DNA of 50,279 nucleotides, the filler included, from Jimgerdemannia flammicorona (lineage: Eukaryota), in assembly GCA_003990765.1 (NCBI GenBank). It is 2 parts of 2 records of this genome, joined end to end, with 100 filler letters (N's around TTAATTAATTAA, not from the genome) between each part and the next. Parts side by side here need not be neighbours in the genome. Positions count along the whole stretch, not along the records: positions 25,197 to 50,279 come from RBNJ01000885.1; 1 more part is not named here. One strand, 5' to 3'. The notes beneath the pieces were generated by a model. The model did no database searches, was not told the DNA's origin, and was given only the letters and a program-made list of their open reading frames with translations. Of the stretch, positions 16,891 to 44,547 are shown piece by piece (position 1 is the stretch's first letter; each line of letters starts with the position of its first letter). A program made the position numbers and the translations under genes.

Positions 16891-16911
16891 ACAACAAACT
16901 ATGACATATGT

Positions 16912-18902
16912 TTTTCTCTGATAACATTTGGATTACACAAACTTCTGTCAATACTCAAGACTTTATTTTTGGAAAAAAAGTACTAGTAACATGGTGACTA
17001 ATGAATATTCCAAGGTGTGTGCAGGGCAGGGTGGCCCTATTGTATTTAACTGGCAGCATGTGGGGAGGAGTCATAGCTTGGGGGGAAGTATGTGGAGATT
17101 GCTGGCTGGAGGACATAGAAGGAGAGGAGGCAGTACTGGGGGACAGGGGACTAAGAGGATGAGCTTCACAGATAAGGTGAAGAGAGGTCATCTGATGTCT
17201 GGACTGGAGGGCTGACTAAGGAAGGACAAGGAGATAGCAAGGGCTGCTGGGTCTGGGGGAGTGGCTCAGAGCAGCAAGGGTAGCAGAGCTGGAGAAGTAG
17301 TGGCTGGAGGAAGCAGGACTGCTGATGGCAAGAAGACTGCTAATTTGGCAGAAAATCCAGATGTGATGGTTGATGACAGATCTGAACAGGGGGTAGACAT
17401 GAGGTCTGGGGATCTGACAGATGGTGTAATGGGCCTGGTGGCAACACTATTACTCAAGAAATTGAGGCCAGAATTTGCCATCACATTGTATTTCTGGAGC
17501 TTAGCAGTGACTGCTAGAATGATTCTGGAGCTTCTGGCCCAGGAGGTAAAGGGAGCTACCTTGGTGAAGTTTTTGAAAGAGCTGGAAGGAGTGGAGGTTA
17601 GATTTGAGAAGGAAGATATACTGTTGGAGATGATGGAGAAGGGGGTAGTGGTGGGGGGGGGGTGGCAATCCCTATGGCCAGGTGCTTATGTTGAGACCCC
17701 TGAGTAGTGTAATTGATAGTAATAGATATTCCTATGGTATTTGAAGGAGGTAGCCAGGAGACTGATTGTAGAGGTCATCAAGGAGTATGGGAATATCATA
17801 GATGTTGGTTTTTGGGTCTGAGAAGGTATGGAGTTCAGGAAAGAAGATGTAGATATCAGGGTATAGCTGGTAGATAAAGAGAATATGGAGAGAGCATGGG
17901 ACTAGCCAGTGATACTCAAATGGAGATCAGTGGAGTGTGAAATCTCTAGAGTGAAAGGGATGCAGGAAGAGGAAGAGGACTTACTAGAGGCATTGGAAGA
18001 TCTGGCTAGAGCTGTTGAGAGGAGATGACTGGTCTGGAAGAAGTTTGAGGCTAAGATTATAGTGGAGACTATGAATGGTAAGAAGGTGAGGCTAGACTGG
18101 ACAGCCTGGGAGAGGGCACAGGGGAGGTATATTCAGAAGGACCTGTTGGGGAAGTTGGAAGGAGGGGGGGCCAGGGGGACCACTATGGAAGATACTGGAT
18201 CAAGGGCAAGTACCTGGGTTAGAGAGAAAGAAGCAGCTCCAGGGGTGATCCAGGGGGAGAGAGGTGGCTCTGGGTTGAGTGTTATCATGAAGGATATAGA
18301 GATAGTTGAGGGGGAGCACCCTCAATATAGTGTGTCAGGTGGGGCTACTGGTAAGAATGAATTGTAGGATGTGCTGGAGGAGGATTGGGATGAGTTAGTG
18401 GAAAGAAAGACAGAGGGTGGGCAGGCAGAGAGGGGGAAGAGAGTGGCCCAGAGAGTTGAGGAGACAGTGGATGAGGAGAAATGATTATGAAAAATACTTG
18501 AGAACATAGTGGTAGAGGAGCTGGGGGGGGAGGACTTTCAGGTACTAAGTGAGAGACACTGGGCTGAAATTCTACATGGTGAGGAGATACCAAGGAAACT
18601 CTGAGATGAGATAATAGCAGCCTTGCTAGAAGGGAAGATATATCAAGTAGACGATGACAGAGAGGCAGTACTTCTGGCAATTGTGAATGATTGGACTGCT
18701 TATATATTAGATCTAAGGAAAGGGTTGGCAAAGTAGCAGGTAGTGTGTAAGGAATATCAAATGGAGATAGAAGCTGTAGATGGTACAGAATGTTAGGAAA
18801 TCTTGACAGTACTGGATACTCAGTAGAGAGAGACAGATAAGCTTGAAATAGAGAGGAACCTGGATATTGCTGGCAAAAAGATGAGTATGGAATTGTAGGG
18901 TG
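16912..18902 (+). mobile_element. L1/Tx1-like LINE copy 2 (diverged subfamily; 5' UTR + ORF1 only)
   Basis: LLKKLRPEFAITLYF..TARMIL and other ORF1 blocks are homologous to 44857-46440. Shared 5' end ttttctctgataacatt. Confidence 0.88.
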
Positions 18903-19510
18903 GCTTGGAGTTGCCCCTATACTGCTAGCAGAGGGCCACAAATTTTGTGCACTCCCTCCACTAACTTTACTGACCCCTGGCCCAGGTACAGGCTGCTTGG
19001 AGGTACTCCATACAGCTGGTAGAGGGCTGCAAATTTTGTGTACTCCCTCTGCCAACCACTCTGTCCCAAACACTATAGCTTGGGGTTGCCCCTTACTACC
19101 AGTGGAGGGCTACAAATTTTACATACTCTCTCTGCCAACTCCATGCCCACTGACCCAGGTACTGACAGCTTGGGGCTGCCCCTTACTGCTGGTAGAGGGC
19201 TGCAAATTTTGTGTATTCTCTCTGCCTACCTCATCCCCTCCACCTACCCTGCCCCCTCTGTCTATCCCACCCCCTCTACCTACCCCCCCATTCCAGTTAC
19301 TTGTAGCTTAGGACTACTCCTTACTGCTGGCAGAGGGCTGCAAATTTTGTGTACTCTCTCTACTAACCCTGTGCCCACCAGCTCTGCCTACTGACCCAGG
19401 TACTGATAGCTTGGGGCTGCCCCTACTGCTGGCAAAGGGCTGCAAATTTTGTATGCTCCCTCCACCACTGCCAACCCTACTGACCACTGCCCCAACTTGG
19501 GCTGCAAACT
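18903..19510. repeat. Degenerate tandem array: six ~55-bp cores (gcttggggctgccccttactgctggtagagggctgcaaattttgtgtactc) with variable C-rich linkers
   Basis: Cores begin near 18903, 18995, 19078, 19168, 19306 and 19409. Confidence 0.9.
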
Positions 19511-19896
19511 CTGGGCCAAGTTCTAAGTTTTTTTTTATCTCTTTTATTTTTGAAGTATTAAATAGTCTACAAGGCCAATTTAACTCATCTATGAATTCCA
19601 GGACTCACTAAATTTTAGTGGCCCAAGCCCCACCAAGATTTCAGACACATATATATCTGGATTGTCTCAGTATTCAGTACATACCTCTTAGGGGCAATGA
19701 GATTCACCCTACCTAAGAATACCTGCTTGATGGGAGCACTAGAGGCAGGAATTGCCAGATAGTTCTAAGCCATATCACATAGGCTGGAAAAGTCTGTTTG
19801 ATACAGCTATACACCCTGGTAGGTAGGGCAGTGGTTAGAATGGTGGATTAAATTGGTCCAACACAACCAACTACCTGTTTGACAACCTATCTTCTA

Positions 19897-22536
19897 TCAG
19901 TTGAGTACCTCTGCACCCTCCAGCAGGATCATGTGGTTGCTGGTGAGATAAATAGTAAGTTTGTCTATTAACAGCAGCTCTTTCGCTGATGACTCCCTCT
20001 TCCTCTTTCTGCTGAAGTAAATGTGAGACAGGAGGGATCCCTTGGCATATTTGTCTGGACTTTGGCTAGAACCTTGCAGTGACATGTAGTTTTTCTGGTA
20101 TGTTTCAATTATAGTCTACTTGGTTCTCTCAATGAAGTACTGCTCTCAGCTCTGATCTTTATGATATTTTAGCTTTAAGCATAGGTCCAACACTGTTCAG
20201 AGAAAGAGAGTGAGTTTTTGCAAAGTTTCTCTGTTTTTGGAAGGGAAAATAGCCATATGCCAACATATCTATACTGATTGAGTATACAGTGATATCTGTT
20301 TTAAAGTAGTATTTTCTGAGCTTGCTTAGAGCAACCTCTATGGCATCTCTCTGATCTGGGCTTAACCATAAATCACTGTAACCCTCCAGCCTATCCTCAA
20401 GCTTATCCTCTAGCCAGTCAATCAGAAGGTTATATATTGGTATTGTAGAGCTTATTGTTGAGGTCATTTGTTTGACTATATCCTTTGTATAATCATTGAA
20501 ACACTGGCAGTTATGTGTGGTGAGGTATTACATTGTGCTGAGGTAGACAAAATGACTGTGGGGTCAGAGCAATTACCACTTACTTCCAAAACTCTGACAA
20601 CATTTCTAAGTATGTCCCACTTGCTTTCACCTAGAGCCTTACCCTACATTTTCTTATTGGTAGCTACTATGAAATCTATTGGCTTTTTTTGTTTTGTTTT
20701 TTGTTTTTTTTTTTTTAAAAAAAAATCTTTAATCATCTAAAACAAGTTGCTTCAGCTGACCAAAGAATAAAGAATACATACTATAGCAAACTCAAGAGCA
20801 TACTGGATCATTGCAAATGTTGAGTTCCAACATATATAGACATCTAATAGATTGCTCTATACTGTATAGTGAATTTGTCTTATTATTATAGGGACAATCA
20901 GACCAACACAACCAGTTTGTGCAGCTTGGAAACTATACTCAGGGCCCCTCTTCTCTCAGATGTTTTGTCTACATACATAAGATAGTTCTGAACAGTGAGG
21001 TTCAGTATGTGAGCCTGGCATTATATATGGTAGCTTTCTATACTGAAGACCACATTTTTCTATTTGAGGCTGGCTGCTAAAACTTGGAAAAATGTTGAGT
21101 TGTTTGTGGTATTGTCTGTCATAATGGTCAAAATCTGTACTTGAAATATTTGGTCAGCAGATTTATGTAAAAATAAATAACTAATAAAATCTATTTTGTT
21201 TTAGAATCTCCTTCAAAATACTGACCTAATGGTAAGCCTCTCTTTTTTACCTTGGTTGTGATCCCAAGCTCCTGGATACAACTAATAAAAGCATCTGTGA
21301 TATTATCTCCAGAATGAGGGCCAGTAAGTTTGATGAAGTCAAGGGTGAGAGATTTAAGCTGTCAATTAAAGTCAATCCAATGATCAGTAATGCCCAAAAA
21401 TGAAATTACATTGGGGGATATTTATGTGTTAATTATAAATGAAATTTTGTCTGCCAAATTCTACTTATTAAATATGAGATTAAATTGGTGAGCTCTTTAT
21501 AAATATATATATATAATTTAGCTTATAAAGGTCATAGTGCTGTCCTTATTTATTTATTTTACCTAAAGTGTCTGGTGGAGATTATCATGCTCCTTTCTAT
21601 AGGCCTCCAGGACATCTTTGCAAATAGTATTGGTACTTGGCAAATATAAATCATGCTTGAGAAGACCAAAGATTCTATGTAATTGATCACTCTCAATGGT
21701 TGTAAATAGTTGGTCTGTACATACAATCCAGTGAATAAGCTGATTTCGAAATTCTGCCAAAGAGTATAGCTAAATATTTTTGATTAAATGGGGTTGTTGA
21801 TACAGAAATAGTCAGATAATTAGATAAACATATCCACTATAACTTGGATATCAATTTTATTTATCTCTATGTTCTTTTTGATTTTGTCAGAGTACTTATC
21901 TTTTATGTATCAATATATATTCAAAGTTGAACTACTAAGTATTTTGAACTTCTGGCTGTGTAGTTTATAGAGGTAGATAAAACAGTATCATGTATATGTC
22001 AAACCAAAGTATCAGTTATATTATAGATATATCTTCTTTTTTTTAAAAAATTTTTATCTGCAATAGTTACAAATAATATCATCTTTTGTCTTAGCACAAT
22101 GTTACCAGATTTTGGAGTAAGGATTACATGGAAAGTGTGGAACTATTGGGGATGTTTAACTTGAAGTATTATCAGTACTCTGAACTGTTAAAGACTGATC
22201 TGTCAATATATATTTGTATATGCATGCATGTGTGTTTGTATGTATATTTGCATATATATATATTGTATATATGGATGTGTCTGATATATAAGTTATATGG
22301 AGGATTTGGATTGGAGGATTCAGATTGGAGAATTTGGATTGGAGGATTTGATTGAAGGATTCAGATGAGGATTCGGATTGAAGGATTTGAATTAGAGGAT
22401 TTGAATTAGAGGATTTTAATTGGAGGATTTGGATTGAGTGATTTGGATTAAGTAATTTGGATTGAGTGGTTCGGATGGGATGGTTCAGATAAGGTAGTTT
22501 GGATGAGTAATTCAAATTGACTCATTCAGAGTACTA
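19897..22536 (-). mobile_element. hAT-superfamily DNA transposon with decayed, intron-containing transposase; only the 5' TIR found
   Basis: LIHWIVCTDQLFTTIE, SFLGITDHWID, LTGPHSGDNI, TDNTTNN, CQAHILNL, WNSTFAM, KLRKYY. GT..AG introns (e.g. ~21137-21226). The end reads tagtactctgaatgag on minus at 22536. Confidence 0.88.
22279..22505. repeat. Subterminal short tandem repeats (ggaggatttggatt, 10-14 bp) of the hAT element
   Basis: Directly visible array ending about 30 bp inside the TIR. Confidence 0.9.
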
Positions 22537-22559
22537 GATATATGGCTAATTTATGATTT

Positions 22560-24200
22560 TAGTGAGATAATTCTATTACTTATCATAATAGATATAGTTA
22601 TTGATAAAAAGGCAAGATAGCTATTTAGCCTTACTGAGAGTAGTTTGTTAGTAGATAATTTATTCTATTTCATAATATTCTTTCAGTTCTTGTTGATAGT
22701 GGAAAGTTTGAAAGTATTAAATTTTTCCAAGATATTATTAGGCTTCATTTGGATTCAGACTTTCAGAAATTTATATATTGATAGAAGACAATTGAGTAGA
22801 GATTTATTACTATTCAATAGTTATAAGAATAATATAGCAATCTTATTCTCAATTTGTTCTTAGTGTTTTTATTAGTTATTTATATTATTAGTAAGTTATT
22901 TATATAATGTTTAAGAGTATTTTATATTTGTCTTATTAGAAATATAATATTTCTATTATATTATATATTTATATTAGATTACTATTTTTTCTATATTTGA
23001 TAGAAGATTATCTTCTTTTCATTTTACTAGATAATATTTATAAACTAGTATAATAAAACTATATATTGATAGAATTAATATATTACAGATAATTAAAGAT
23101 AACTATCAACCCTAAGTCCTAAGTTTTTAAGAAAGTAAAAAGTTCTAATTACCTATTACAGCAGAGTTCAGGTATCACTTTCAGATTCTTGTACTAGTGG
23201 AAGTATTGTGCTTATATTCTAAGTTGATCAGACTCAGAATTATTAACAAATTAGATCTGAGAATTTTGTAATAAGAATACTACTTGATTCTTATATTTAG
23301 AGAAAGTAGAGCTAATATTACAATATACTTATATAAAGAATATTTATACATATTTGAAGACTATGATTAAATATAGTATACTGGATATATCTATACTACT
23401 TTGAGTAACCATGACTACTAGTTAGAAATTCTGTAGAAATTTCTATAGGAATTTCTATAGGAATTTTCAGAGGCTTATAGATATATGTAATGATTTATTA
23501 TATTTTTCTCTTCTTTGCTTGAGTCTACTCATTAGACTTAGTACTAAACTCTAGATACTTATTAAATTGAAGGACAGTATACTAAACTACTTGAAAACAA
23601 TTTTGCTCTATTATTAATTACTCAAATTGACAATATTCTCAAGAGATACTCTATAGAGATGATTAAGGACTTGGGGTTGAATGCAGAAAAGGACATAGAG
23701 TCTTTTAGCAACTATATAAGTATAGTTATCAATGAAAAGATGAGCTCATTGTTTGGTGATACTGAGGGTAGCTTATTGATAGATGAGAAATCTTATCTCA
23801 TAGTACTTCTTAAGTTTTTATTAGTAGCAAAAAGTCTAGAAGTATTAGATCCTTCTAAGATATAGTTGAGCTTCATTTGGGTCAGAGTCTCTAGTAATTT
23901 ATATATTATGTAATAAATAGTAGTTCAGTAAAATTCTATTAATATTTGATTACTCTAAAGATAGTAGTAGCATTTTGTTCTTAACTTATTCTCAGTATTA
24001 TTGCTAGATACTTATATTGGGGGGAGTAGGTTATCTATATAGAATTTTTTTTTGGATATTTATACTTTTCTTCACTAGAGTTATTTAGAGATATAACTGT
24101 CTTTTGAAAATTCTGTCAGAATTTTATTATACTAGATATCTATATTAGATTACTACTTCTTCTGTATTTGGTAAAAGATTGTCTTTCTTTTTCTAGATAG
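22560..24200 (-). mobile_element. Two more family D fragments: internal piece 22560-23048; LTR 23049-23502 + PPT + accessory ORF to ~24200
   Basis: 23049-23910 aligns to 11406-12260, and 22590-23040 aligns to ~23715-24200. Confidence 0.78.
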
Positions 24201-24229
24201 TATTATACTTGGGATATTTTTCCATTTTA

Positions 24230-24960
24230 TAAGATAGTATTAGGTAGACTTAGTAGCTTGTTCAAATTAGCAATCCTTATAATCCAAGATGTCATATAAT
24301 TTATATTCTAGTTGCTGATCAATAATTACTAAATCTAGAGATAGTATAGTTCTTTCTTTAAAGATATTTAAAGTATATGGCTGAAGTTGAAATATATAAA
24401 ATACTGGGTAAATTCTTCCTTCTGATTCTTTCATTCATCAATTAAGAATTTTTTTTTCTATTTCTTATAACAGAAATAATACATATTTATATATAGATCT
24501 AAGGCTGAAGCTATACTATATAAAGTATTATCTTATAGTAATACTTTAGAAGTTTGGTATATATATTCTTAGTAGCATTAAGTATTATCTATAAAAAAAT
24601 AAAAAATAAAATTAAAATATATATATATTATTTTTCAATTACTTACTAAATTAGTTTCTAAATTTATAAATAAAATTACTTTCAAAATTATATATATACC
24701 TAATTAAAATATTCACCAGTTCAATATGTATCAATAATAGCTACTATTATAGGATACTTTTAAGTTAATATTATAGTTATCACCTTGATAAAAGACTTAA
24801 GAAATTGGCAAATCAATTCAAATCATTACTATGTATTTTCAGATATATAACTTAGTTATTTATCTATAGTACACAATATATCCAAACTCTATTTAGATAT
24901 AATATTAATTTATTTAATACTAAAATACTTCTGAATTATATTTTAAATTATATTTGAAAT
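24230..24960 (-). pseudogene. Possible very decayed hAT transposase C-terminal remnant
   Basis: Weak minus-strand motifs FELICQFLKSF and LLKYY...ALDL. Very AT-rich. Confidence 0.35.
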
Positions 24961-24968
24961 CTATACAA

Positions 24969-25096
24969 TGTGACGGTACAGCCGAATTTGGAAGAAGGAA
25001 ATAGGGAATAGACACTTGATCGCACCCATTCCCAAAGTAGTATAGCCTTATAGTTAGCAGTCCTCGATTTCGACATTGTCTAATTTCTTAGACATT
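24969..25096. repeat. Probable edge of a young LTR, cut by the gap
   Basis: Abrupt switch to CpG-containing sequence starting TGTGACGG. It does not match the Copia LTR beyond the gap. Confidence 0.45.
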
Positions 25097-25196
25097 NNNN
25101 NNNNNNNNNNNNNNNNNNNNNNNNNNNNNNNNNNNNNNNNTTAATTAATTAANNNNNNNNNNNNNNNNNNNNNNNNNNNNNNNNNNNNNNNNNNNN
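25097..25196. other. Assembly gap / artificial linker (44 N + TTAATTAATTAA + 44 N)
   Basis: Symmetrical 100-bp spacer containing stops in all six frames. Confidence 0.95.
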
Positions 25197-25683
25197 GCGG
25201 CTTCCAGTAGTCCGCCAAGCCACATTCGATAAGGAGATTCTTCATATGATAGGCCCAGATTGCGTAATCTTTCCCGTCGAAGACAGGGATGGACCTCTTG
25301 GACGTTTGCACTGTCGTAATAGCTGCTGGGGCTGGAATTGACGTCGTCGTGATGGTCGTAGTAGTTGCCGCTGGGGCTGTTCCGGTACCCGTTCCGGTAC
25401 CCGTTCCGGCACCCACCGAGGGACTCCCTGGCGTATTCGACATCTCTTTTGTGCATAGAGTAGTGTAGTGTATATTAAAGAGGTGTTTTGGTTAGCCACT
25501 AACCGGGGCTCATAACCTATTGTGAAATACTGGAATTTGAGGGATAAAGGAGCAATCTTTATTGATATGCGCGAAGCACGTATTTACGCGTTGATGACGT
25601 TTCCACTGATGACGTCCTCACACGTGAGCTGTGCCACCTTCACGTGAGCTACATACCGAGTTGATTAGCTAGAAATCTCAACA
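25197..25683 (-). mobile_element. Young Ty1/Copia retrotransposon 5' end (LTR 25521-25683, PBS, gag start at 25443)
   Basis: 163-bp TG...CA LTR, PBS GGTTATGAGCCC, gag IPVFDGKDYAIWAYHMKNLL..CGL. CpGs are retained. Confidence 0.9.
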
Positions 25684-26276
25684 ATCTTTATGACCTAGTC
25701 TATAATAGCCTATATAGAATATACTATCTGATATCTTGTTTATTTTATAATATTATTAAATAATATTTGATGTCAGATTTTGCTACTATAGTATATAGCT
25801 ATAGTTTGGACTTTATCTCTATAATGAGAATCAGTCCACTAAGACCTATATAGAATATATATAATTATATGTAGTAGTATAGGATTTGAGAATTATAGAC
25901 TAGTATTTATAATATTATACTACTATTTGGATCTATTTCTTTACCACTATGATATAGAGCTAGTCCATGACAATCTGTATATATCACTTTATATAACCCA
26001 AGACTATAATAGGATAGAGCTTTATAACTATGGCCTAGCTTTGCTTCCATAATAAGGATCAGCCCACTAAGACCTATATAGGACATATATAACTGCAGTA
26101 GTGCAGAATTTATAGACTATGGGCTAGCATTTGTCTCTACTTATATAGAGCTCTCAAGTATAGATATATCTCATATAGGTCCTTTTACTATGAGGTAAGT
26201 ATAATTTCTTTAGACCAGATTCTTCAAACTGACTAATGTAAAGCATTTGAGTCTGAAATATTTCATATATATATAT

Positions 26277-27790
26277 TGTAACGGTGACCCCAGAATGATG
26301 ACATCAGCACAGGAGACAGCCTTTCCTTACAAGCCACCAGATCGGAGTATAAGAAGATCATACAACATACGAGATGAGCAACGATGACCAACTGTGAGTT
26401 ATTGTGACCACAGCACAAGCATCCTGAAGAATATAAAAGAAGGATCAAGGAACTGCAGTAGCAGCAACCAATAAGAACCACTAATCCCAAAATAGCTCAA
26501 AGACTTACCATAAACAAAATACCTGCTGCCCGCCAAACCTCAAGGTCAAGGAATCATCAAGGTATCTCGATCGAGGAAAGGATGTTCCAAGACATCAGAA
26601 GAGCCATGAGGACCCACTCAAGAAGGACTCCTAGTGTCAACCTGGGTACTGCAGACCCTTATCACTTTATCCTCTATCGTCGTGAAATGGAAACAAGAAT
26701 CACCATTGCCACCGAATGCCTCCAAATGTGGCAGGAGTATGAAATAGGAAACCTCCTCTGCTGGGAGTTCCCACAGGGCAGCCCTCAAGAGCTATAAGAT
26801 GCCACCCCCATGGACCTACATGAGACAAGGATAGCAAAGAAGATCCATCAGATCTTCAGGCATGCACTATGGTCAATCCCCAACTTGGAGTATGTTAGAG
26901 TCTCAGACTTCAGAGACCTGTCATCCTGCTGCATCAATGCACTAGAAGCCAGGGTAGCCACAGAAGCCCAGTCCACTATCACCCTCAACAGCAAAGAAGT
27001 AGAAGACTTCTGGCATCCTATCCTTCAGGACAACCCAGACCAATTTCTGCAAGGATTGATCTCAGTATTCCAAGGCCCAAGCATCTGGGTTAGATCCCCC
27101 CAAGACCCCACATTTGTCCCCTATTTTGTGGAAGAGAACCTCATAGACTGGAGAGCTCCAGACCTTGTTCCCGATTTCCCCGCCACAGCCGAATGTGATG
27201 ACGTCATCGATGACGTCATCCCACACGATATACCCGAAGCACATGAACCGCGCGACGAGGCATGCGAAGTATGTGAAATGCGTGACCTACATGACGAATT
27301 CGTGGACCTCATCTCCTTCAGTGATGATGATGATGATGATGATGAAGCTCCCATGATCCTGAACTTTCTGCTCTAAAGTTCTTTGTTACACTGGATAATG
27401 CCAGCACCGGTATTCTCATGTAACACTGGATAATGCCAGCACCGGTATTTTGATGTAGTACTAAATAATGCCAGCCCTGGAACTCAGTAGTTTTAGTTAT
27501 TGGAATTTATATTTAGCTTCATATCTTAGCAACCATTGAATTATATTTTGTATAAATACCTCTCTTATTTCCTCTGAAATAAAGTCAGTCAAGTTCAGTA
27601 CAATACACACACTTCCTTGCAAGAAATCTAAGAGATAACAAGACAGTTAAAGATAAGAAGTTTGAGGACTATAAGACCTTGGGAAGGCACTCCAATAAGA
27701 ACTTGCTTATAACAAACTTGAGTTAGTCTAAGAGATACACCTTGAAGAGAATCTGGCATATTTGAAGGACTCAGTGACCACTATATGACA
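26277..27790 (+). mobile_element. Probable 1.5-kb solo LTR (family E) carrying an ORF in U3
   Basis: TGTAAC...TGACA ends within an (AT)n tract, three ~34-bp repeats at 27384-27480, TATAAA ~27551, AATAAA ~27578. Confidence 0.75.
26384..27376 (+). pseudogene. ~330-aa unknown protein with acidic tail (LTR-retrotransposon accessory ORF family)
   Basis: ORFs 26582-26797 and 26810-27376 and the upstream ATG at 26384 share one frame. Stops at 26405, 26459 and 26795 are all revertible C->T. Confidence 0.75.
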
Positions 27791-30233
27791 ATATATATAT
27801 CTAAAATATATATATAATAATTTATATATAATAATTTACTCATCTAATCTATTATTATCTATAACTTAGTATTCATTGTTTGGTATTTATAGTCTGTATT
27901 TACAGATAGCTATTTGTAGTAGGTGAGTTAGTAAAGGAGTAGAACAGGAATTTAATAGATCATGTCAGATTATGTCACACTCAGATTATATAATACTCAG
28001 ATTATTTAAGATTATTTCACACTCAGATCATATAATTTCAAATTTAAGCTTTAGTTAGTTTTCATATCTTTGGGATAATAAAAGAGGAGATATATATTAT
28101 CAATTGAATATTATATATCAAGAGCTGTCTTGTACAAAAAAAAACTCATAGCTAATAACTAGAATACTTCAAATTAAATAATAATACATTAGTAGTAATA
28201 TAGTATACTTATATTATATATCATTGACAGAATTTATAAAGAAAGATTGATGAGATATCTCTCAGTTATTGATAGCTTCAATAAGAGTTTGATAAAAGAA
28301 GTGTTATCTCTAGAATATATTACCTTCAGTTGATTGAATATTACAAAGAATTGATAATAAGAAAGCTGAGATAAGAAAGCAGAAAGGCTAGAAACAGGAG
28401 AGCAGAAAGGCTGGGGAAAGGAGAGCAGGAGGCTGAGGACAGCTGAGTATTTTGTATAGTTTTACAAGAAAGTTTGACAAGAGAGTTAGAGTTGGAAAAT
28501 TTATTCTCAAGGGTAGATTTGTAAAGAAGAGAGGTGAGAGTTTGAAAGAGAGAAGAGTTCCAAAAAGAGAATTGAGAATAATGAAGAGCTTGGAGAGGAC
28601 AAGGAAGAAGAGGGAGGAAAAGAGTAGTAGCTAATGAGTTTATTTATATAGGTGTTCAGAGAGTATATAACATTTAGTAGCTGCATCCTCCTGATATGAG
28701 ACTACTATTCTTGATATATATTATAATATGCAAAAAAATATAGTATAATCTGATAATTAAATACTATAGTTACTATATTGCTATGAAATTGTATCTATAA
28801 AAAACCAGATAGCCAGAAAAGAAAAAAGATAGCTAATGTCTGCCAGATATTAAATATCTACTATATAGTAAATATCTACTATATAGTAGATGTCTACTGA
28901 ATAGTTAATATCTATCTCTAATTAGCAAATCTATAGTGAGCCATATAGCAACCAGATAGCAACTAATCTATATAAAATACCCCAGAGACAAGAATGAATA
29001 AATCTCAGTCTGAAAAGTCAAAGAAAGTAGAGAGCTTTCTTTTCCCCACTCCATTCTACTTTTCAATACAAAGCCTGAGAAATCTGCCAAGTTCAAGTAA
29101 AGAACTTTGCTGTCATTTGAGTAATCTGCTGCTTAAGGAAAAACCCACTGTTTGAAGAAAAATCCACCTATATTCTCAATACAAAGCCAGTCTATTTGAT
29201 ATAACTTTGCAGTGAAGCCAGTCTCTCTTGATATAATAGTATATAAATGAAGTCAGTCTTTGATATAAATTTGCTCAAGAATCTGCACCACTTAAAAGTT
29301 ATCTGCTATATTTTAGTATGCTTACTAGATAAAGCCAGAAGTCCACCAATTCAGGAAGAATCTATATCAATCAAGTTATCCAAGTCACTTACTATTTTGT
29401 AATGCCAGAAATCAATAGCATAATGTTAGAGATTGTTGTGATATACAGAGATCATCATGCTATACAAAAGATTGTCATTCAGAAATCACATAAGAAAACC
29501 CACTCACACTATGTATAAATTGCTACTATACTCAAGAACCATCCCAATAAGAAAATCAACTGTAGTATCCAGATTTGACTATTATACTACTAGATACCAA
29601 TAAGGAATTTTAGAACATTTTGTTGCTTTTTAACAAAGTAACTGTGGACTCAAGCCAAACTACATCAACTCCCAATCTTGTAATTTATCTCTATTGAGCT
29701 GATATATTACATTTAGAAGCTCAACTGGGAAAATTTCAAAATCTATATGACTTTTTAGCTTATAAGAACTCACAGTCAAACTAGATAGATTTGATACAAC
29801 ACCAATCACTGCTATTACAAGAGAACAAATCATCACTAGTATTTAGACAGAAAGAGAAGTAATTATCTCAAAACTTGCCCATTACTCAGTATCAGAAAGA
29901 TCCCAATCAGAAGCCAATATATATAGTACAAAATCCTTAGCCAGTAGTAACAGACTTATCACCAGATCAATCAGACTAATCAGATCAACCAGACAATATA
30001 GATAGCTCTGCTAGAAACTTCAACAAGCTTGTACAAGAACTTGAAGACCTTATTGCAAAGACTCAGTTTTCTTTAGAAGTTCTATAGTCTCTCCCATTGA
30101 ACCACTATTAGGGTCAGTAATCACAGAATAAAAAGAATCAAGAATAGTCCCTTTAAGGTTACCCAGATCCATTGCACCTTTTCTGAGTTTAGCAATACTA
30201 TCCTCAGAATACTCAAGTATCTTAAGTTCCAGC

Positions 30234-30580
30234 TAGTACTCTCAATGAATTAAATCAAATCAAATTTGATCCAAATTTGATTCAATTCAATTAAATCAAA
30301 GGTCTAATTTGATTTGATTCAAATCAAATCAAAGGTCTAATTCAATTCAAGATTTGATTCAAACTCTATTTTTTGAAATATAAATACCTTGACAAAAATA
30401 TATCCAAATTTAATATTCTTTAGTTTGTTAAGTTTGTATGTATTTTTATCAAGTTATTATATTTCTAAAAATAGGGTTTGAATCAGAACCTCAATTCAAT
30501 TTAAATCTAATTTAATTTGAATTTGATTTAATTCAAAATTGAAAATTCTCCAATTTAATTCAATTCATTTATGAGTACTA
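30234..30580. mobile_element. hAT-type MITE (347 bp, fold-back)
   Basis: TIRs tagtactctcaatgaatt / aattcatttatgagtacta, 8-bp TSD gttccagc/attctagc, internal inverted repeat 30356-30412 vs 30428-30484. Confidence 0.88.
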
Positions 30581-33500
30581 ATTCTAGCAATAGTTTAGAA
30601 AGTAAATTAGAATTAGAATTAGAATCAGAATCAGAACTATGATGAAATAGCCACCTTAATACCAATCTTTACAAGATGAAGACCCAAGGTAATTTCTTGA
30701 TAAAATTGAAGGAATTATAGCTCTGAAGAATCTCTCTGCTGAGAGAAAATTTACTATTTATAAGACCCAACTCAGAGAACCAGCCAGGGGAATTTTCAAC
30801 CAAGTAGTAAGTGATGTACATTTAGACCTTAGAATAGCCAACTATATAGCAGCAATCTGAGAAGCAGAATATAAAGCCATGATCCACTGGCTTATTGAGC
30901 AATATATAGAAAATGACACTTATCACAATATCTAAGAATCTATCATAAATATGAAGATGAATCTTGGAGAATTATCTAGAGTATTCTTTACTAGAATTCA
31001 AAAGAGAATATATGTAGCTAGGTTAAATGCTACTAATCAAGACATTATAGGTCCAAAGATCTTTATGAATGGGATTCTTCCAAATATTACTCAGTATATC
31101 CACACTCTAGATATCAGAAGACCTGAAGAAAAGTTGATATAGTCCAAGGATTTTTTGATATCAGACAGAGAACCATCTGGAGTGATCATAATAAAAAGGA
31201 TAATAAGGAGAACTTCTTGATCAAAACCCTGCAAGAACTTCTCCAAGAATATGAAAAATCAGAATAAGGAAAGCTAGCCAAGAAGTAGAAGAAAGAAAGA
31301 AATAAAATCTAAAATCTCAGTTCCAAGTTGAACTAATTGGTTGGAAAAATTAAAAACCTTACTATATATAAAAATCAGAGCTACCTACAAGATAACAGAG
31401 GATATATTCTATAACAAAATCAAGATTACTCACCTAGAGATTATAGAAGCTATCAGTCATTAGAAGAAAAAAGGTACTCTATCTAGGATAGAGCTCAAGT
31501 CTAATACTTCTACTGTAGATAGTTCTGATACTATACCACAGAATATAACAATAGGAGAAGTGACCAAAGGGACTCTGAACTACTGAATTGAAAGAATAAA
31601 ACCCAGTACAAGAAGACTGAAGACCTCTCTGTTGAAGATCTTGAAGAAAAAAGTAACAGTAAACATTATAGTGACCTAGACCTATATTCAGCTAAGTCAT
31701 CACTAGAAAGACAGTCTATCTAGTAGAGAAGAGGAAGAGATCCATAGGAAGACCATCCAGAAATACTAGTAGAAGAATTATTCAGAAAGAAGATAAAGAG
31801 TATGAAGAAGAATAAGTGTAAGTATCTCTCTAGTCTCTCTTATCTTTTATTCCTGAAACAAATGAACTACTTTCAGAGAATAAAGAAATAGAGTAAGAAG
31901 AACAGAAGTCTGTTGCCCCAAAGTCCAAGAAGAAGTATACCCCAAAGATTATATCCAGAGATATTTACAATAAAGTCTGGCAAAAGATTCAAGAAGCTAA
32001 GATGAAAGTCTCTCTCTTGCAGTTTCTATAACTGATATCTACTGGAGTTCAGAACAAACTAATGAGAACTACCAGATCCAGCACTGGCTGAATCCTAATT
32101 TTACAACAAGAACCAGTTTCAACTATTATTTAAACTATAGAAAGATATATCAGCATATATCTGCATAGAGATATTAGAGAATGAAAAGTGAAAATCCTCA
32201 TTTATATAGAAGCAGCTATCTGTATTATTGCTAAATACTAAATACCCTCTAGTAGACCATTGATAGACCATTCAATCTTAGCATAATAGTAGCAGATAGA
32301 GCCCAAACTCAACCTCTTGAAGAAGTATAGAACATTATTATCTCTTTGAGACACATTCAGTTATCTATTCCAAAAGCTATTATCATTAAAGCTATTATCT
32401 ATGATATGATTCTTAGCACCAACTTAATGAAAGAAATGAATACAGGCATTGACATTGGCCAATAGGTGCTCAAATTCTACTGTAGAATAAAGAAGTATAG
32501 AATTAAGATAATCAGCTATGAGAAGTTAAAGAGAAAGAAGAAGATTACTATCTAGGAAGAATATACTAGTAGTGAGGAATTCACTATAGAAGAAGAAGAA
32601 GAATCTGAAGATAAAAATGACCACAGACTCAACCCATGAATCAATCTAGCAGATGATAGGCCAGAAGATAATATATGGGCCAAAGATACTATTTCTATTA
32701 CAATCAGAGTTATTGTAGAATAAATCAAAAGTATCCCACCTATCTCAAAAGATACAAGTGCTCTGAATATTCCTCTAAGGTCATTAGAATAAGAAATTCA
32801 CCTGGTATAGCCTGTCCTGAGTATAGTAGAAGAAAGAAGAAATGCAAACATATTCCAAAGATACCTGCAACTAAAGCTACAGAAGTATAAGCAATTTGGG
32901 GTCAAGAAATATCTGAAGTAGAAACCCCTGAACAAGATATTCCTGAATAAGAGAAACTCTCTGAACTTATTTTCTAGGATTACTCTCACTAGATACTACT
33001 AGAAGATAATGATCCTTAGAATACTAGAGAAGGATTAAGTATAGTCACTGTCATTTAAAGACAGGGAAAAGAGCTTTTTGGCTAAGAAGACATTAGCATC
33101 AAATGGTCTTCTACTCTTCTCAAGATTACTGCAATAAGTACCACCTATTGGACTAATAAGAAAGATAGAAACTATACAGATCAGAGACTCTAATCACAAT
33201 TGCTCAAATTATCACCTTCTAAGAAACTACCATAATATTAAAAAAGTGAGCTAATAGATAAGATCACTTCACTTGAACAGAAGTACAGCTCTTAGTTCCC
33301 TTTTTCTAACTTATGATAGTGATGAATATTGATTTCCAAGACAATAAGAGATTAATAACCAAAAACTGCATTTTTGAGCAATAGAATATTGCAACTATAG
33401 AAAATACCCAGACTGCTAAGATTGCCAACATTAGATCAAGAAACTAAAAAAGAAGACTCTTAAGATCTATAATCTGAGAGAAGACATCCTAGTCCTCATT

Positions 33501-33699
33501 AGATATATAACCTATCAAGAATAGATAGAAGATACTACTAACTTTATAAAAGCCCTATACTTTATAGGAAAAAGAGAAACCAACTACCTCTGAGATCCCT
33601 CTACTAGAGCTAGATGACCACATCTCAACCTTAGAGTCTAGAGACTCATCTCCACTAAAGCCTCAGTCTAAGGATAACCTGAACTCAGTAAAGGTATTG

Positions 33700-34105
33700 T
33701 CCAGTATATCTTGCTATTTCTCAAGGCCAAACTCCCAATTAAAGCTCATCAGGAAGATGAGGGATATAACCTCTACAGTCTAAAAGATAAATATATCAAG
33801 CCTGAAAGAACAATAGTACTTATTACAAGATTAGATATATAGTTACCAGAAAGAATTTACATCTAACTGGCCTCAAGGTCTGAACTCACTAGATAGAAAA
33901 TAACTATAGAAGGAGAAATAATAGACCCTAGATATATAGGCAAAATCAATATCATTTTGAACAATAGTAGTAGAGAATAGTACTGAATCTATAAAGGATA
34001 AAAGATTGTATAAGCAATCTTCATAGAAGTCAAGACTCTCCAGCTATAAGAGGTCTCCAAGTTGATCCAAGATATAAGACAAACTGAAGAATTTAGAAGC
34101 TTTAA
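33700..34105 (+). pseudogene. dut: dUTPase domain of family B (between PR and RT)
   Basis: AKLPIKAHQEDEGYNLYS, LASRSEL, EGEIIDPRYIG, KIV*AIF, EEFRS (decayed GFGS). Confidence 0.85.
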
Positions 34106-36685
34106 TAAGAAAAAAGTGCATCTTCTCCAGATCAACTACTTTAAGAAAAATACCTCTCAGCAAGTATATTACCAACTAGTCAAGCTATACAAAAACCTCA
34201 TTCTGGAACCAGGAGAGCAGACCATCTTTGAAATCTTTACACTACTTAATTCTAGAAACCTTTTCTCTGAACTCAATAATGTCATAAAAACCTATATATA
34301 GAAGTATAGATATTTTCTGACAAGATGAACTCTGATATTCAATTAAAGTTAGAAAAGTCTCATTCTATCAAAAAGAGCCATCATAGGCTACCTGATACTC
34401 TATCTCAACCAAATATATAGAAAAGTTTATGAACTTAACTTATTGAAAAATAGCAAAAGATCTCAGAAGAAAGAAAAGACCTCTCTGTATCTTAGAAGAA
34501 AGTGAAGTCTTCCACCAATATTGGAGAAGAATTGATACTTCAGCTATAACAACAATTAATAGAACTTCTTTATAAATACCAAGATATCTTTACTATAGAC
34601 TATAGTAACTTATCATACAACTCATTATACTACTATAGTATAATACAGAAAATACAACACCCATCTAGCAGAAGCTTTATAGAATACTCTATCATCTAAA
34701 GATATTTAAGAAGAAATATATTTAGAAATTCTTAAACAATAGAGTTATCTGACCCTCTATGAGCCCCTGGGCCAGCTCTATACTTATTGCATCTAAGAAA
34801 GAAGAATAGAGACTCTGTGTAGACTACAGGAAGCTCAACTCAGTCACTGAAAAAGATACTTACCTCTTGCTCAGAATTGATGATCTCTTAGAACAATTGC
34901 AAGATACCAGATACTTCAGCAGTATGGACCTTTTTACAGAATTTCATAAGATCCCCATTGATCTCTAAGACATTCAGAAAACAGCCTTTCTTACTCTAGG
35001 AAAATTGTTTGAATATCTCTAAATACTTTTTGGACTTTGCAATACATCTTCTACCTTTTAAAGAATGATGAACTCATTCTATGGTCTACTGATCTACTAT
35101 TGCCTAATTATATATATAGGTGATTCCAATATCTATTTAGCAAATTTCAAAGAATACTTACATTATCTAGAGAAATTCTTCAAGCTTATCTACAAGAACT
35201 ACCTGAGACTCAATGCTAAGAAATACTACTTTGAGAAACAGAGACTTGAATTTCTTTGATTTATAGTTTTAAAAAAAAGAACTCATACAGACCTAAAGAA
35301 AACTGAGAAGATTAACAATTGGCCAGTAATCAAGACCTTGAAGGAAATACTATCATTTCTGATATTAGTGTTTTACTATAAGAGATTTATTAAGAACTTT
35401 ACCCAAATTGCTATCCTAATCTGAATTCTTCTCAAGAAAGAAGTACCATACAAATGAATGAAACTATATGAACCAGCCTTTAAAGAACTTAAGTACCATA
35501 TGACCACAGTACTAATTCTTATACAACCCAATCTACAGAAGCCATTCATCTTATATATAGATACTTCTAAAGATATATTTGGAGTAGTTCTAGTTTAAGA
35601 AAGATCTTAGCAGTACTATGTGATAGCTTATGTAAGTCAAGCTATCAACCAGCAGTAAGCCAATTATAGTAATACCAAACTAGAATACCTTATAGTTATA
35701 TGGGCAGTTACTTTATTCTAACACTACTTTTTTAGAAAAAGATTTACTCTGATAACTAATGATACTGCTCTAAATTATTATTTGACTACAAGAAACCTAT
35801 CAGAATCCTTGCTCACTAGATCCTTATTCTGTAAGATTACAAAATCACCATCATTTATAAAGTAGAAAAAGCTCACAACAATGTTGATATACTTTTTCAT
35901 CAACCTTAATAAACTATAAGAAGGGTGTACTGAGGAGCTATACTCTAAAGAAAGCTTCTATAGCTATCAAGGTATAAGAAGATCTCATCTAAAAGAAACA
36001 CCAGAAAGCCCACCAAGAATAGATAAATATAGAAGTAAAGTGGTAAACAACATACCAATATTGGCCCAATCTCAGAACAGGAGTCCAAGATATACTTAAG
36101 AAATATAATATCTATCAGGAGTACTAAGAGAAAAAAAACTACCAAGCACCACTACAACCAATCATACTACTAGATAATATCTATGAAAGATGGAAAATAG
36201 ATATTGTAACATAGCAGATACTTAACCTCAGAAGTATATTAGATTTCTGTATCTTGAAAACTTAATCTTCTTTGACTTTGCAGAGTCCTCAGGATGTGGG
36301 AGTGGGTGAGTTTGAAATATATCTACCTGCAGACTTACTAATTCCTTTACTTTCTCTTTGCTTTGAACTATTTCAATCTGAGGTTTATTCACTCTAAGAT
36401 ACTGGGTTATTTATACAGATTTGTTAGCTATAAGACAGCTAAGTTATGATCAAATTATAAGTCACTTTTCACAGATGTTAATCCTTGATATCTGTGAAAT
36501 GATTGATAATATTTGTGAAAACTTTAACATTTGTGAAATGACTGCTATTTGTAGGGCTATACTATATTGGGAATTAGGTTCAGATACTATAATTAAATGT
36601 CTAATTCCCCTAATTCTTATTCCTAATTCAGATCAACCATTATAACTTCCTCTTAAATAGGTGATTTGTCTCTAAAACATTCTAT

Positions 36686-37147
36686 TCACTCAAACTCCCA
36701 GACTTCTATGATTTGTATCTTCTTGTACTGTGCAATTTGTGTCATTATATTCTCCCAATGGTGCCTCTTAATATATCCAAAATCTTCTGAAACTACTCCT
36801 TAGAAATGGGGTAGGGCAGCCTCATTGTCTTTAAACAGCTTATTGACTTGTTTAGCAATTGTAATCTGAGAGTGAGAGAGCTGGCACTCTCTGATCCAAT
36901 CTTCTTTTCCCATTTCTGGGTGTGAATTCAGTAGCTATCCTAACTTGAAGTATTCTTCAAACTCTGTCTGATTCTGGTAGGCCTTGAAGTGTGAGATTTT
37001 TGACAGATGTATCTGTACTATACTTTGGATACTATCATATGATTTCTCTATCATGGGTGGCTCAATAGTACACCATTGTCTTTCTATGGCTTGTTGTACA
37101 GCACTAGTGATCTTGAGAGCTATGGCCATACTTCATTAATTAGCCAT
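36686..37147 (-). pseudogene. Accessory ORF of family C between integrase and PPT
   Basis: ORF 36935-37129 continues in frame through revertible stops: EEYFKLG*LL...IAKQVNKLFKDNEAALPHF*GVVSEDF. Confidence 0.75.
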
Positions 37148-39839
37148 GATACTTCTTGAGTTGGTTTTGGTGAGTAGTAGTAGGGATGATTGTGCCTGAG
37201 AGTTTTCATAGCCAAAAGGTGGTCCTTTTTTATATCTTGCACTAGGTAAGGTCTCTCTCACTTAGGCTCCAGTTTTTATGACCATGAAGCTTCTACTATA
37301 TTCTGATATACCAGGACTTTGTCTTCTATCTTGATAATATCTAGAGGCTTGTGAACTTTTTCTGCATTATTCTGTTGTAGTGCCTGCACCTTGGTTATAT
37401 AATCTTCAGCCTTTTTCCTGATTTTGTATAGTCTCTGTATCTCTCCATCTATATGTTTCCATACAGTATCTCCATTAGATGATAGGGTGTCTTGAGAACC
37501 TTCTTCTCTAAATAGTATTTCCTGAGAGGTGAAATGAATACTTTGTGATCAAATATCCTGGAGAGCAGATAATGCTATTGGCAGATAGTGATCCCAGTTT
37601 TCATAGTTATCACAGATCTTGGTAATAATATTTTTGAGGGTCTTGTTGGTCCTTTCTGTCTGTCCATTTTCTTGAGGATAGTATGCTGTGGTCTGAATGT
37701 GCTGGATCTTATACTTTTTGTAGAGAACCTCAAAGAACTGGTTCACAAATTCTGTTTCTCTATCTGTGGTTACTTGTATTGGGGTCTTGAACTGGTAGAT
37801 AATTTCTCTGTAAAAGAAATCAGCAATTGACTATACATTGGCTTCCTTGAGGGGCCCTGCCTCTATCTATTTTATAAAAGGGTCTACAATGATGATGATA
37901 TATTGATTGCCAGGCAAAATCAAAGGTAGAGGATCAATTACATCCATTATAATGTGGGTAAATAGTATTGGTTCTATGTGTGCTGATCCTGGGGCTTGGT
38001 TTCATTGATCTTGTTTCTGCTTCTGGTATTTATCACAGGTCTTGACAAATTGTCTGATATCTTTCTCCATTCCTGGCCACCATATTGTTCTTCTTACTTT
38101 ATTATATGTACTTATTCCTCCCAGATAACCAAGTTCATATACTGATTTCATTGCTTGGTCCTTCTTGTATTCTGGTATAACTAGTGGTTTTCCTTTCTTC
38201 AATATTTCTCCATTGGTTTCGAATTGTTTCCATATTCTATTGATAATCATTTGTGTCCATTCTTCCAGATGTTGGAGCATCTTTCACTGTCCCAAATAGG
38301 TGATCATTCTATAGTAAAGCTCCTTATTCATAATTGGTTTATTGGTTGAGAGTCCTTTGGGATATCTGTGAGAGGGTATCTGCATTGGCATTGGTTCTTC
38401 CTGGGCAGTGTATGATGGTTTCATCATATGCTTGCAACTTCATGATCTATCTGGCATAGATTTCTTTGGGTTGTCCAGTAGTTAGTAGTCAGGTGAGAGC
38501 TGAGTGATCTGTCTGAATGGTGAAGTGTCTTCTGGTGAGATAGTAGTAGAACTTTTCTACAGTCCAAATTACTGCTAGATATTCCAACTTATAGGATTCA
38601 TATTCTTTTTGAGCTCCTTGAGTTCCTTGACTTAGGTATGTGATGACATACTCCACTTTATCTTTCTTTTGAGCTAGGACTACTCCTAGTCCTTGGGTGC
38701 TTACATCTGTCTGCAGGATAAATTCTTGAGTCCAATTGGGTCTTCTGAGAATAGGTGTCTGGATCAGTCTGACCTTGAGTTCTTTGAATGCTCTCTGTTA
38801 TCTACTAGTCCATTGGAACTTGATATCCTTCTTATTGAGTTCATAGATTGGGCCTGTGATGTTAGAAAATCCTCTGATGAATCGGCAGTAGTATGAGGTA
38901 AGTCCCATAAAGGCTTGGGCTTCAGTGACTGTGGTGGGCCTTGGGTATGCTGCTACTGCTTGAATCTTGAGGGGGTCTGTATATGTTCCATCTCAATTAA
39001 TAATATAGCCAAGATAGATAATCTCAATTTCTGCAAATTTGTACTTCTTGGGCTTGATGTAAAGACCATGCTGTCTCAACTTTTCCATCATCTGTTAGAT
39101 ATACTGCAGATGTTCTTTAGCTGTCTTGCTGTAGATAATAACATCATCCACATAAACCATCATCTATGTATCTATATCATAGCAGAAGATTTTGTTCATC
39201 ATTCACTGAAAGCTTGCAGGGGCATTGTACATTCTGAATAGCATTTACAGGTAGATATAGGTTCCATCTGGAGTGATGAAGGCTGATTTCTCACTTGCTG
39301 TTTCTGTGAGTCCGATTTGGTAGAATCCTGAGTATAGATCCAAGGTGCTGTAGTACTGTGCTTCATCTCCCAGAGTTATAAGGATGTCATTGATGAGGGG
39401 CAGTAGTTGGCAATCCTTCTTAGTGACTATATTGAGCTTTCTGTAATCAACACAGAGTCTTGGTGTGAATTCTCCAGACTTGCTTCCTTTCTTTGGAGCT
39501 AGTACAACCAGTGAAGACCAGGGGCTACTGGCTTCCTTAATGATACTAGCTTCTTCCATCTGTTTGATTTCTTCTCTAAGCCATTCTCAGTAGACTGGTG
39601 GGACAGGTCTTGCCTTCTGGTAAATTGGTTTGATATCTCCAGTATCTACATCATGATAGTAGTGTGAAGTCTTTCCTTTAATATTCTTGAAGTCTGTGGC
39701 AAGGACATCCTCAAATTTGTAGAATATTTTCTTGAGCTCTATCATGAGTGGAAATTTCTTTCCAATAGTATAGCTGTGCTTGTTTGTAGTTTCCTCCTTC
39801 TTGTGTTTCAGCTTGGTGATCTTTGTATTAGCAAATACT

Positions 39840-40260
39840 CCTCTTTCTGTAGATCTGAATCCTTTCCTTCCTCTTTCTGTTTCCTCCAACTTCTTGACTT
39901 CCATGATTCTTGGCTGAAGGACTGGGAAGATCAATGTTGATACTAGTCAGTCCTTCTTCTTGATCAGAAATGGAATTATAGGATTGTGGTTTCTAGCAAT
40001 AAGTAGTATTTCTCTAGTATAATCGGAATCAATGACTCCTCCTTCAATTGTGATTTCACTTCTAGTCAGGCTGCTTCTTGTCTTAAGGATTCTGATATGG
40101 TCTTTTGAAATGGTCATCTCCAGACCAGTTGTAAGTAGAGTGGTTGTCTGGGGTTCCAGTACAGTTTCTTCCACTGTGGTGATATCCATTTCAGCTGTAT
40201 TTACTGACTTGTATTCTGGTAAGACTACATCAGGATGAATCTTCTGAATCTTGATCTTGA
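39840..40260 (-). pseudogene. dut: dUTPase domain of family C (between PR and RT)
   Basis: KIHPDVVLPEYKS..AEMDI, KTRSSL, GGVIDSDYTRE, TERGRKGFRST. Confidence 0.92.
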
Positions 40261-44127: not shown

Positions 44128-44272
44128 AGGATAGTCTGAGGGCAGACCATCCTTTAGTGAGGGCTGATGTAATGTACAAAATAGTATAGTATACCCAGAT
44201 GACATAAATATCATAGTTACCCTATTGCTACAAAATTATATAAATAACCAGATAGCCAGAAAAGAAAACAGA

Positions 44273-44416: not shown

Positions 44417-44547
44417 AATTAGAAAATCTATAGTTCACCACATAGCAACCAGATAGCTACCAACCTATATAAAATACCCCAGAGACAAGAGTGAATAAAC
44501 CTCAGTCCCAAAAGTCAAAGAAAGCAGAGAGCTTCCTTTTCCATTGC

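Follow-up and report, generated by a model that had tools for sequence, protein, structure and literature searches.

A stretch of 50,279 nt from the genome of Jimgerdemannia flammicorona (assembly GCA_003990765.1), referred to here as the window, consists of two separate contigs that have been joined artificially, with two runs of N around TTAATTAATTAA, which we take to be a six-frame stop spacer, at 25097-25196. Since the join is artificial, no inference is drawn across it. Self-comparison and Pfam scans of stop-masked frames show that both contigs are repeat nests, within which four types of element, designated E, C, D and B, carry an additional open reading frame (ORF). The original prediction, made from the window alone, held that these ORFs encode one unrecognised family of accessory proteins of retrotransposons with long terminal repeats (LTRs); the motifs that it quoted do lie where it put them and in the frames that it gave. 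We consider it likely that the ORFs form a family that has no name as yet, made up of small accessory proteins that are all-helical and non-enzymatic and are encoded on the sense strand at the very 3′ end of the genomic RNA in several Ty3/gypsy lineages; a regulatory role is tentatively proposed for them.

Positions of the accessory ORFs

Elements C and B are both Ty3/gypsy elements, and C is nested within B (Table 1). In each of them the third ORF (ORF3) lies beyond gag and pol, between pol and the 3′ LTR, on the sense strand, and ends ~40-50 nt ahead of that LTR. The ORF3 ATG of element C is located 5 nt upstream of the pol TAA in the +1 frame, which gives an 8-nt overlap, ATGGCTAA. In element B, pol ends ...YYEPED-TGA (43641-43643) and the ORF3 ATG stands 14 nt before this TGA, also in the +1 frame and, as in C, with its first base at the second position of a pol codon. 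The ATG is thus 8 nt (C) or 17 nt (B) ahead of the end of pol, and features an A at -3 in both. The internal stops of the two ORFs (4 in C, 11 in B) are all TAA, TAG or TGA, and three changes near the start of the C ORF are accounted for by C>T when it is compared with intact relatives.

Two diverged elements agree in frame relation, in size and in distance from the LTR, and no fewer than six metagenome proteins begin at the Met in question, which argues for ORF3 of C and B being a separate gene and not an extension of pol. The alternative is a C-terminal extension of Pol or integrase, reached by a +1 frameshift or by read-through, with the pol stops as artefacts of repeat-induced point mutation (RIP). 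Such an extension would explain why integrase and the ORF directly adjoin in C and B, and RIP is able to create the two codons, TAA and TGA, with which pol ends. However, ORF3 is out of the pol frame in both elements and has its own ATG with an A at -3, from which the metagenome proteins (P0009, P0011-P0014 and P0017) also start. Moreover, the E ORFs start 245 nt inside an LTR, past the polypurine tract (PPT) and with their own conserved leader, and in D the shared core comes well after two stops and a pol end that is chromodomain-like. An extension of Pol is therefore regarded as very unlikely.

Only for the E-type ORF is a location wholly within an LTR, upstream of its promoter, supported. 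The interval 26277-27790 is most likely a solo LTR with the ORF inside its U3 region, upstream of a TATA box, as judged from the TGTAAC and GACA ends, the (AT)n flanks, the PPT-like junction and the contig coverage; this LTR is defined by its ends and coverage rather than by pairing with a second LTR. Contigs of four public sequencing runs were placed on 25197-29100, and the segment from 26277 to ~27816 has a high summed depth in all four runs, with both flanks uncovered. Contig cover is missing at 25721-26244 and 27817-28864, which is not evidence in itself. The letters preceding 26277 are concordant in nine contigs of the four runs and end in AGGAGGAAGA, a purine run that is PPT-like in composition. 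Downstream of the ORF, the block formed by TATAAATA and AATAAA may be read as the promoter and poly(A) region of the LTR. Two metagenome loci with intact E-type ORFs, L001 and L002, are contigs of 1345 and 1535 nt, which is LTR-sized, and one of them begins TG. Because the ORF lies downstream of the PPT and in U3, reverse transcription would place a copy at either end of the element, and the ORF would persist in solo LTRs.

In the window, the E ORF is a lightly RIP-mutated pseudogene, since it features one internal TAA and several Arg>Cys/Trp changes. Position 26521 is a G in most contigs of the four runs, which restores an ATG to the ORF. A start at 26384 had been proposed, but two stops intervene between 26384 and 26519, and the relatives of the protein start with MPA... 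at 26519. The placement claimed for all of the ORFs, in sense, after integrase and at the 3′ LTR, therefore applies to C and B but not to E, which lies in a solo LTR beside the minus-strand 5′ end of a copia element, with no integrase upstream of it in the window.

Two to three tandem units of ~26 nt (CACTGGATAATGCCAGCACCGGTATT) are found at 27383-27470 (+), between the stop of the E ORF and the TATA box, and may constitute an enhancer-like repeat array. Contigs of other runs have variant units in this interval, with loose ends at 27436-27467.

Table 1. Coordinates in the window of the accessory ORFs and of the elements that carry them
Feature	Position	Strand	Details
E-type LTR	26277-27790	+	1514 bp; starts TGTAAC, ends GACA; (AT)n on either flank
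E-type accessory ORF	26519-27376	+	285 codons; start codon ATA; one internal TAA at 26795
Shared helical core of E ORF	26558-26965 (approximate)	+	hhalign of A2 against A3 aligns P0002 residues 14-149
TATAAATA and AATAAA downstream of E ORF	27551-27558; 27578-27583	+	conserved with metagenome locus L001, at a similar distance past the stop
Element C	LTRs 36204-36637 and 42420-42850	-	Ty3/gypsy; protease, dUTPase, reverse transcriptase, RNase H, integrase zinc and core domains (Pfam)
C-type ORF3	36686-37147	-	153 codons; ATG 37147-37145; TGA 36688-36686; 4 internal RIP-type stops
Stop (TAA) of element C pol (integrase)	37140-37142	-	pol ends ...LKKYHG-TAA
3′ LTR of element C	36204-36637	-	partner 42420-42850; PPT-like AAGAGGAAG just upstream
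Element B	LTRs 28724-29045 and 44170-44542	+	Ty3/gypsy; dUTPase, reverse transcriptase, RNase H (Pfam)
B-type ORF3	43627-44127	+	166 codons; ATG 43627; TAA 44125-44127; 11 internal stops
3′ LTR of element B	44170-44542	+	partner 28724-29045
D unit, three occurrences	11406-12257; 23049-24204; 22593-23038		self-comparison
D pol end	24150-24419	-	integrase-tail-like YPVFYIFQLQPY, then chromodomain-like YKLYDILDYKD...YYLIKWKN, then two stops
D copy 1 (D1), shared core	23611-23868	-	heavily RIP-mutated
D copy 2 (D2), shared core	12044-12223	-	hidden Markov model match
D copy 3 (D3), N-terminal half of core only	22624-22737	-	hidden Markov model match

Homology, intact relatives and protein properties

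Profile-profile comparison with hhalign aligns the E family with the C family over 114 columns (Prob 90.3, E 1.5e-6), the C family with D1 (E 1.1e-5) and a profile of the three D copies with the C family (E 4.3e-6). The common core comprises ~110-130 amino acids (aa), in which the motifs S.DS...V...L.RI.HF, EY..G.LL, then after ~20 aa IAKRIH.LF, and finally VS.DF recur; E and C share about 20% identity. The C family also aligns with B in the expected register, weakly and over 44 columns (E 0.034). When the window was searched with hmmsearch in six frames, as about 500 overlapping segments, D, C, E and B ranked right after the self matches, with nothing else below E 0.5. The hidden Markov model (HMM) of the E family found D1 (E 0.0055) and C (0.046), and that of the C family found D1 (0.0011), D2 (0.0021), D3 (0.006), E (0.13) and B (0.32). 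In a control with composition-preserving shuffles, 2000 for each comparison, those that equalled or exceeded the score of the real sequence were counted; the C-HMM gave 0/2000 for D1, D2 and E and 1/2000 for B, and the E-HMM gave 0/2000 for D1 and C. The E-HMM counts for B (187/2000) and D2 (414/2000) support no link.

On these comparisons E, C and D are homologous, and B is a probable member from its weak score plus synteny. By the same comparisons C is the hub of the family. The claim of one family across four types, for which profile-profile similarity had been named as the check, hence stands for E with C and for C with D, and is weak for B, which is tied to C only. A chance resemblance, produced by a composition rich in AT and biased by RIP and by aligning by eye, would agree with the result of tblastn of E against the window, in which none of C, D or B was matched, and with the lack of significance of B comparisons and of some D-E comparisons, such as that of the D profile with the E family (E 0.4). 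Chance would not produce hhalign E values of 1e-5 to 1e-6 for E-C and C-D together with 0/2000 shuffles in five cross comparisons, and intact members that are not RIP-mutated carry the same motifs. For E, C and D, chance is largely refuted, and overall it is scarcely credible.

The D1 core begins about 250 nt past the end of D pol, in which YPVFYIFQLQPY is presumably an integrase-tail motif. The chromodomain-like stretch that follows this motif scores E 0.05 and 14 bits against Pfam Chromo, which is below the cut-off. Two D copies share a common right-hand terminus ~560 nt beyond the core, and their flanks are different; the core may lie ahead of the D LTR or within it.

A C-HMM match at 2410-2294 (-), with E 0.68, was rejected since its ORF is gag. 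Gag similarity was also assessed with hhalign, in which the A7 profile and an intact gag of the window, P0036, align only over an 11-column C-terminal ..VLNF.. patch (E 0.15). P0036 (1397-2458, -) is the intact 353-aa gag of a further gypsy element and features VEQEVVLNFMRV near its C-terminus, which recalls the conserved (I/V)LNF end of E-type proteins. The two may share a docking motif or one like a protease site, or the likeness may be due to chance.

Intact relatives of the accessory proteins are found in soil metagenomes. For the E type, 4 of 647 candidates passed, and exhaustive HMMER searching yielded five matches at E<=0.001 among 1.84 billion representatives; the relatives measure 138 to 342 aa, the full forms begin MPA..., and P0001-P0008, L001 and L002 are intact, the intact relatives having 215-342 aa. 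For the C type, 6 of 19 candidates passed, and the full form has 153 aa, from MAN(N/Q)RST to EAWEFE, as exemplified by the intact P0009 and P0017. A merged-profile search (14 of 3462 passed) added only further C-type fragments and no new subfamily. The relatives all lie on metagenome contigs (JGI/IMG or ENA) no longer than 4.8 kb, without informative annotation; those with P0009 and P0007 measure 3.0 and 4.8 kb. More than 20 metagenome protein clusters feature intact ORFs, with indels in whole codons, and the ORFs of L001 and L002 encode 323 and 291 aa. The gene is thus present in several lineages and is no one-off transduction, with four element types in the window and the E unit at high copy in the four runs.

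The original prediction proposed dN/dS as a check, and the window E compared with L001 gives 0.23 (pN 0.295, pS 0.668). Compared with L002 the ratio is 0.11 with dS saturated, and pS is saturated between L001 and L002. These ratios show, within the reach of such comparisons, that intact copies evolve under purifying selection, and the gene would be a working one elsewhere as far as sequence can tell. They also bear on the explanation that the ORF is a transduced host gene fragment, spread by recombination between elements and without a role in their life cycle. Transduced additional ORFs (aORFs) are known in plant elements, according to the available part of the source (PMC7264820). Yet the ORF is found at the same place in four diverged element lineages, it is under purifying selection and at high copy in four runs, and no cellular homologue turned up among the 1.84 billion representatives. 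A host fragment is hence highly improbable.

The proteins are predicted to be all-helical, as originally proposed, with helical AlphaFold2 (AF2) models for the E and C types. In the E model, a helical domain spans ~residues 18-155 with a predicted local distance difference test score (pLDDT) of 70-91, and the remainder is disordered. The usual Kyte-Doolittle cut-off for a transmembrane (TM) segment is near 1.6. In nine intact members the maximum mean over 19 residues is 0.19-1.05, which confirms the expected absence of TM- or signal-like stretches; the signal peptide and/or TM segment of an env-like protein is thus missing from them. The absence of a chromodomain was likewise correctly foreseen, given that Chromo (PF00385) has no match among 21 intact members at E<=1. 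E-type proteins are acidic, with a pI of 4.5-5.9, and their acidic tail ends in a conserved P..(I/V)LNF. The tail ends are DEAP.ILNFLL in E and EAWEFE in C, and in B an acidic stretch runs to TYTYWNNN. In the family alignment only one Tyr and one Phe are nearly invariant, and there are no conserved catalytic-looking residues. Searches of the ESM Atlas with P0009 and P0004 returned unrelated prokaryote or phage clusters only.

Repeat damage and neighbouring elements

The genome had been described as one that strongly mutates its repeats, and the window bears this out. Repeat copies differ almost wholly by transitions with a CpA>TpA preference, and the LTR pair of element C displays 50 transitions against 1 transversion with the same preference; the pattern is therefore classical RIP, and from this pattern the host would most likely be a filamentous ascomycete. 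Every copy of the accessory gene in the window is a RIP-damaged pseudogene, in which C>T or G>A changes account for the lost start codon and the internal stops.

The LTRs of the four carriers had been described as unrelated in appearance, but B and C are not unrelated elements, both being dUTPase-carrying Ty3/gypsy elements. The dUTPase domain (PF00692) is found in B (29046-36203, +) and in C (36500-42420, -) with E values of 5e-18 and 3e-15, and in element C it is placed between protease and reverse transcriptase (RT). The left contig holds another fragment of B, which is interrupted by a G-skewed element.

The minus-strand neighbour of the E LTR is a Ty1/copia element, represented by its 5′ end (25197-25530), with a gag start at 25450 (MSNTPGS...IPVFDGKDYAIWAYHM) that was read by eye over 25450-25197. 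About 60 nt upstream of this start the plus strand reads GGGGCTCATAACC, which we take to resemble the anticodon stem-loop of initiator tRNA-Met and which suggests, by analogy, a putative copia-style internal-tRNA primer site.

An element of ~5.5 kb is present in three copies (3916-9398, 44547-50279 and 17296-18898) with a very strong plus-strand GC skew of +0.39 to +0.56. Its copies differ by A/G at 448 sites versus C/T at 212, and a non-LTR-type RT motif (FLDQEKAYDRV...GVLQGDPL) was noted by eye in translation. An LTR pair at 12288-13208 and 15956-16894, of 920 bp and 80% identity, encloses an A-rich interior of ~2.7 kb; this element, inserted beside D copy 2, is probably non-autonomous or deleted. 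Tandem repeats of roughly 85-90 bp occupy 18903-19485 according to self blastn, and one frame of them encodes a repeated Pro/Leu/Cys-rich peptide. On the plus strand of 19000-25001, Pfam detects 0 families.

Proposed role and known systems

The family belongs to the class of aORFs, and its location varies, since C and B have it ahead of the PPT and E has it within U3. The product would be an accessory protein without enzymatic activity, produced from the 3′ end of the element RNA. In C and B, expression could occur by coupled termination-reinitiation after pol or from a subgenomic or spliced mRNA. For E, it might come from an own or spliced mRNA, with the ORF 245 nt into the LTR and in a good start context. 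Such a protein could act in the nucleus as a regulator or adaptor on the LTR or cDNA of its own element, in the manner of a transactivator, with the helical core as the binding part and the acidic tail, with its aromatic or hydrophobic end, as the effector part. This function is drawn from composition, from analogy and from low-scoring matches to helix-turn-helix (HTH) proteins, namely VIA Z scores of 2.7-3.4 to chains of VirB, SopB, ParB, TetR, GerE and MarR and a Pfam HTH_Tnp_Mu_2 match in 2 of 21 members at E 0.031. Taken by itself it is tentative and, if anything, rather unlikely.

A wider proposal concerns 'complex' fungal Ty3/gypsy elements, in which a trans-acting 3′ gene would have moved across the PPT into U3. 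Solo LTRs would then be units of gene plus promoter, and the product, a fungal equivalent of tas, tax, nef or sag, would regulate transcription from the LTR or weaken RIP, quelling or heterochromatin. We hold this proposal to be doubtful.

Alternatively, the accessory gene may serve counter-defence, blocking RNA silencing (quelling or meiotic silencing by unpaired DNA), heterochromatin or RIP, with no part in LTR activation. Plant-virus silencing suppressors and retroviral proteins of the Vif/Vpu type would be its analogues. The heavy mutation of repeats in the host genome would select for such a factor, the rapid divergence of the family (E-C identity of about 20%) fits an arms race, and the absence of an enzymatic or known fold is also compatible. 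Nevertheless, the proteins have no similarity to known suppressors, and all copies in the window were RIP-mutated nonetheless. Dismissing counter-defence is about as difficult as dismissing a regulatory role; as an explanation of the gene, counter-defence is quite unlikely.

Several points weigh against the preferred reading, that of a family of accessory proteins, with a proposed regulatory role, at the 3′ ends of Ty3/gypsy elements. The membership of B is marginal, since B has no aligned core with the E family or the merged profile in hhalign and its comparison with D is not significant (E 0.12). The pol stops that define the overlap with ORF3 could be RIP products, as CAA, CGA or TGG can become TAA or TGA, and they are known here from damaged elements only. 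Position 26277 could in principle be just the truncation point of the E copy in the window, but then it would be by coincidence that the PPT and TG meet exactly and that the flanks match. The family is tiny in public data, where it is confined to the short metagenome contigs described above. The C-type AF2 model has the same helix order as the E model but is poor, and its mean pLDDT of 49.6 makes it unfit for fold search. As for the proposed function, the E, C, B, D1 and D2 tails match nothing in Pfam at E<=10, Chromo included, and the 21-member profile finds only spectrin among PDB sequences (E 0.8). A Foldseek search of PDB and BFVD with the E model gives nothing at E<=0.001, and VIA-align of this model against 48,161 chains gives a best Z of 3.8 and none of 5 or above. 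The HTH flavour is within noise for helical models. The same searches of Pfam, PDB sequences and folds agree with the description of the family as unrecognised, since no already described domain emerged from them.

A conserved, selected accessory protein across diverged gypsy lineages would offer a way to study the regulation of these elements in RIP-active fungi, or their response to genome defence there. Judging by the E lineage, an LTR is able to carry a protein gene, and solo LTRs, by the thousands, could be coding units that annotation pipelines mask. Since the family is invisible to Pfam-based annotation of transposable elements, a family HMM would improve the annotation of fungal repeats.

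To our knowledge, the usual description of fungal LTR retrotransposons is one of gag and pol only. Chromodomains and 'complex' nested elements are reported in a survey of 59 fungal genomes, the available part of which mentions no accessory gene (PMC3248453), and the part available on the Podospora element crapaud describes no such gene (PMC10787394). A full-text literature search found no sense ORF3 or LTR-borne ORF described for fungal gypsy elements. The gene brtn is reportedly an additional antisense gene of Boty-like Ty3/gypsy elements in Botrytis cinerea, a finding credited to Zhao and colleagues in 2011 (Virology 417:248). It is cited in the available parts of two papers (PMC8365987; PMC7264820). 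Like the ORFs discussed here, brtn is an extra gene in a fungal Ty3/gypsy element, a comparison made by description only. Unlike brtn, which is antisense by the title of its report, the present ORFs are in sense, on the pol strand.

Located between pol and the 3′ LTR, aORFs are a recognised class in plant LTR retrotransposons (PMC7264820) and also occur in elements of bdelloid rotifers (PMC5408684), as far as the available parts of both sources describe them. The present ORFs resemble these aORFs in being in sense, after pol and before the 3′ LTR, and in recurring across copies and lineages. The sense aORFs of plants are described as env-like in the part at hand (PMC7264820), whereas the family described here has no TM or signal stretch, has a fungal host and includes one lineage with the ORF inside the LTR.

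In location, right after the integrase core and the GPY/F region, the family is similar to the chromodomain of chromoviral integrases (PF00385). It differs in that none of the five tails matches Chromo and in that D seems to feature an additional chromodomain-like stretch upstream of the core. For the E type, a further comparison is offered by retroviruses, in which the sag ORF of mouse mammary tumour virus is contained in the U3 of its LTR and the nef gene of primate lentiviruses overlaps with U3. The E-type protein has no homology to Sag, which is a membrane glycoprotein, and no hydrophobic segment, and its carrier is a fungal retrotransposon without env. Despite these differences, the E type is like sag and nef in layout, as a gene of the 3′ end that lies in U3 and is duplicated into both LTRs.

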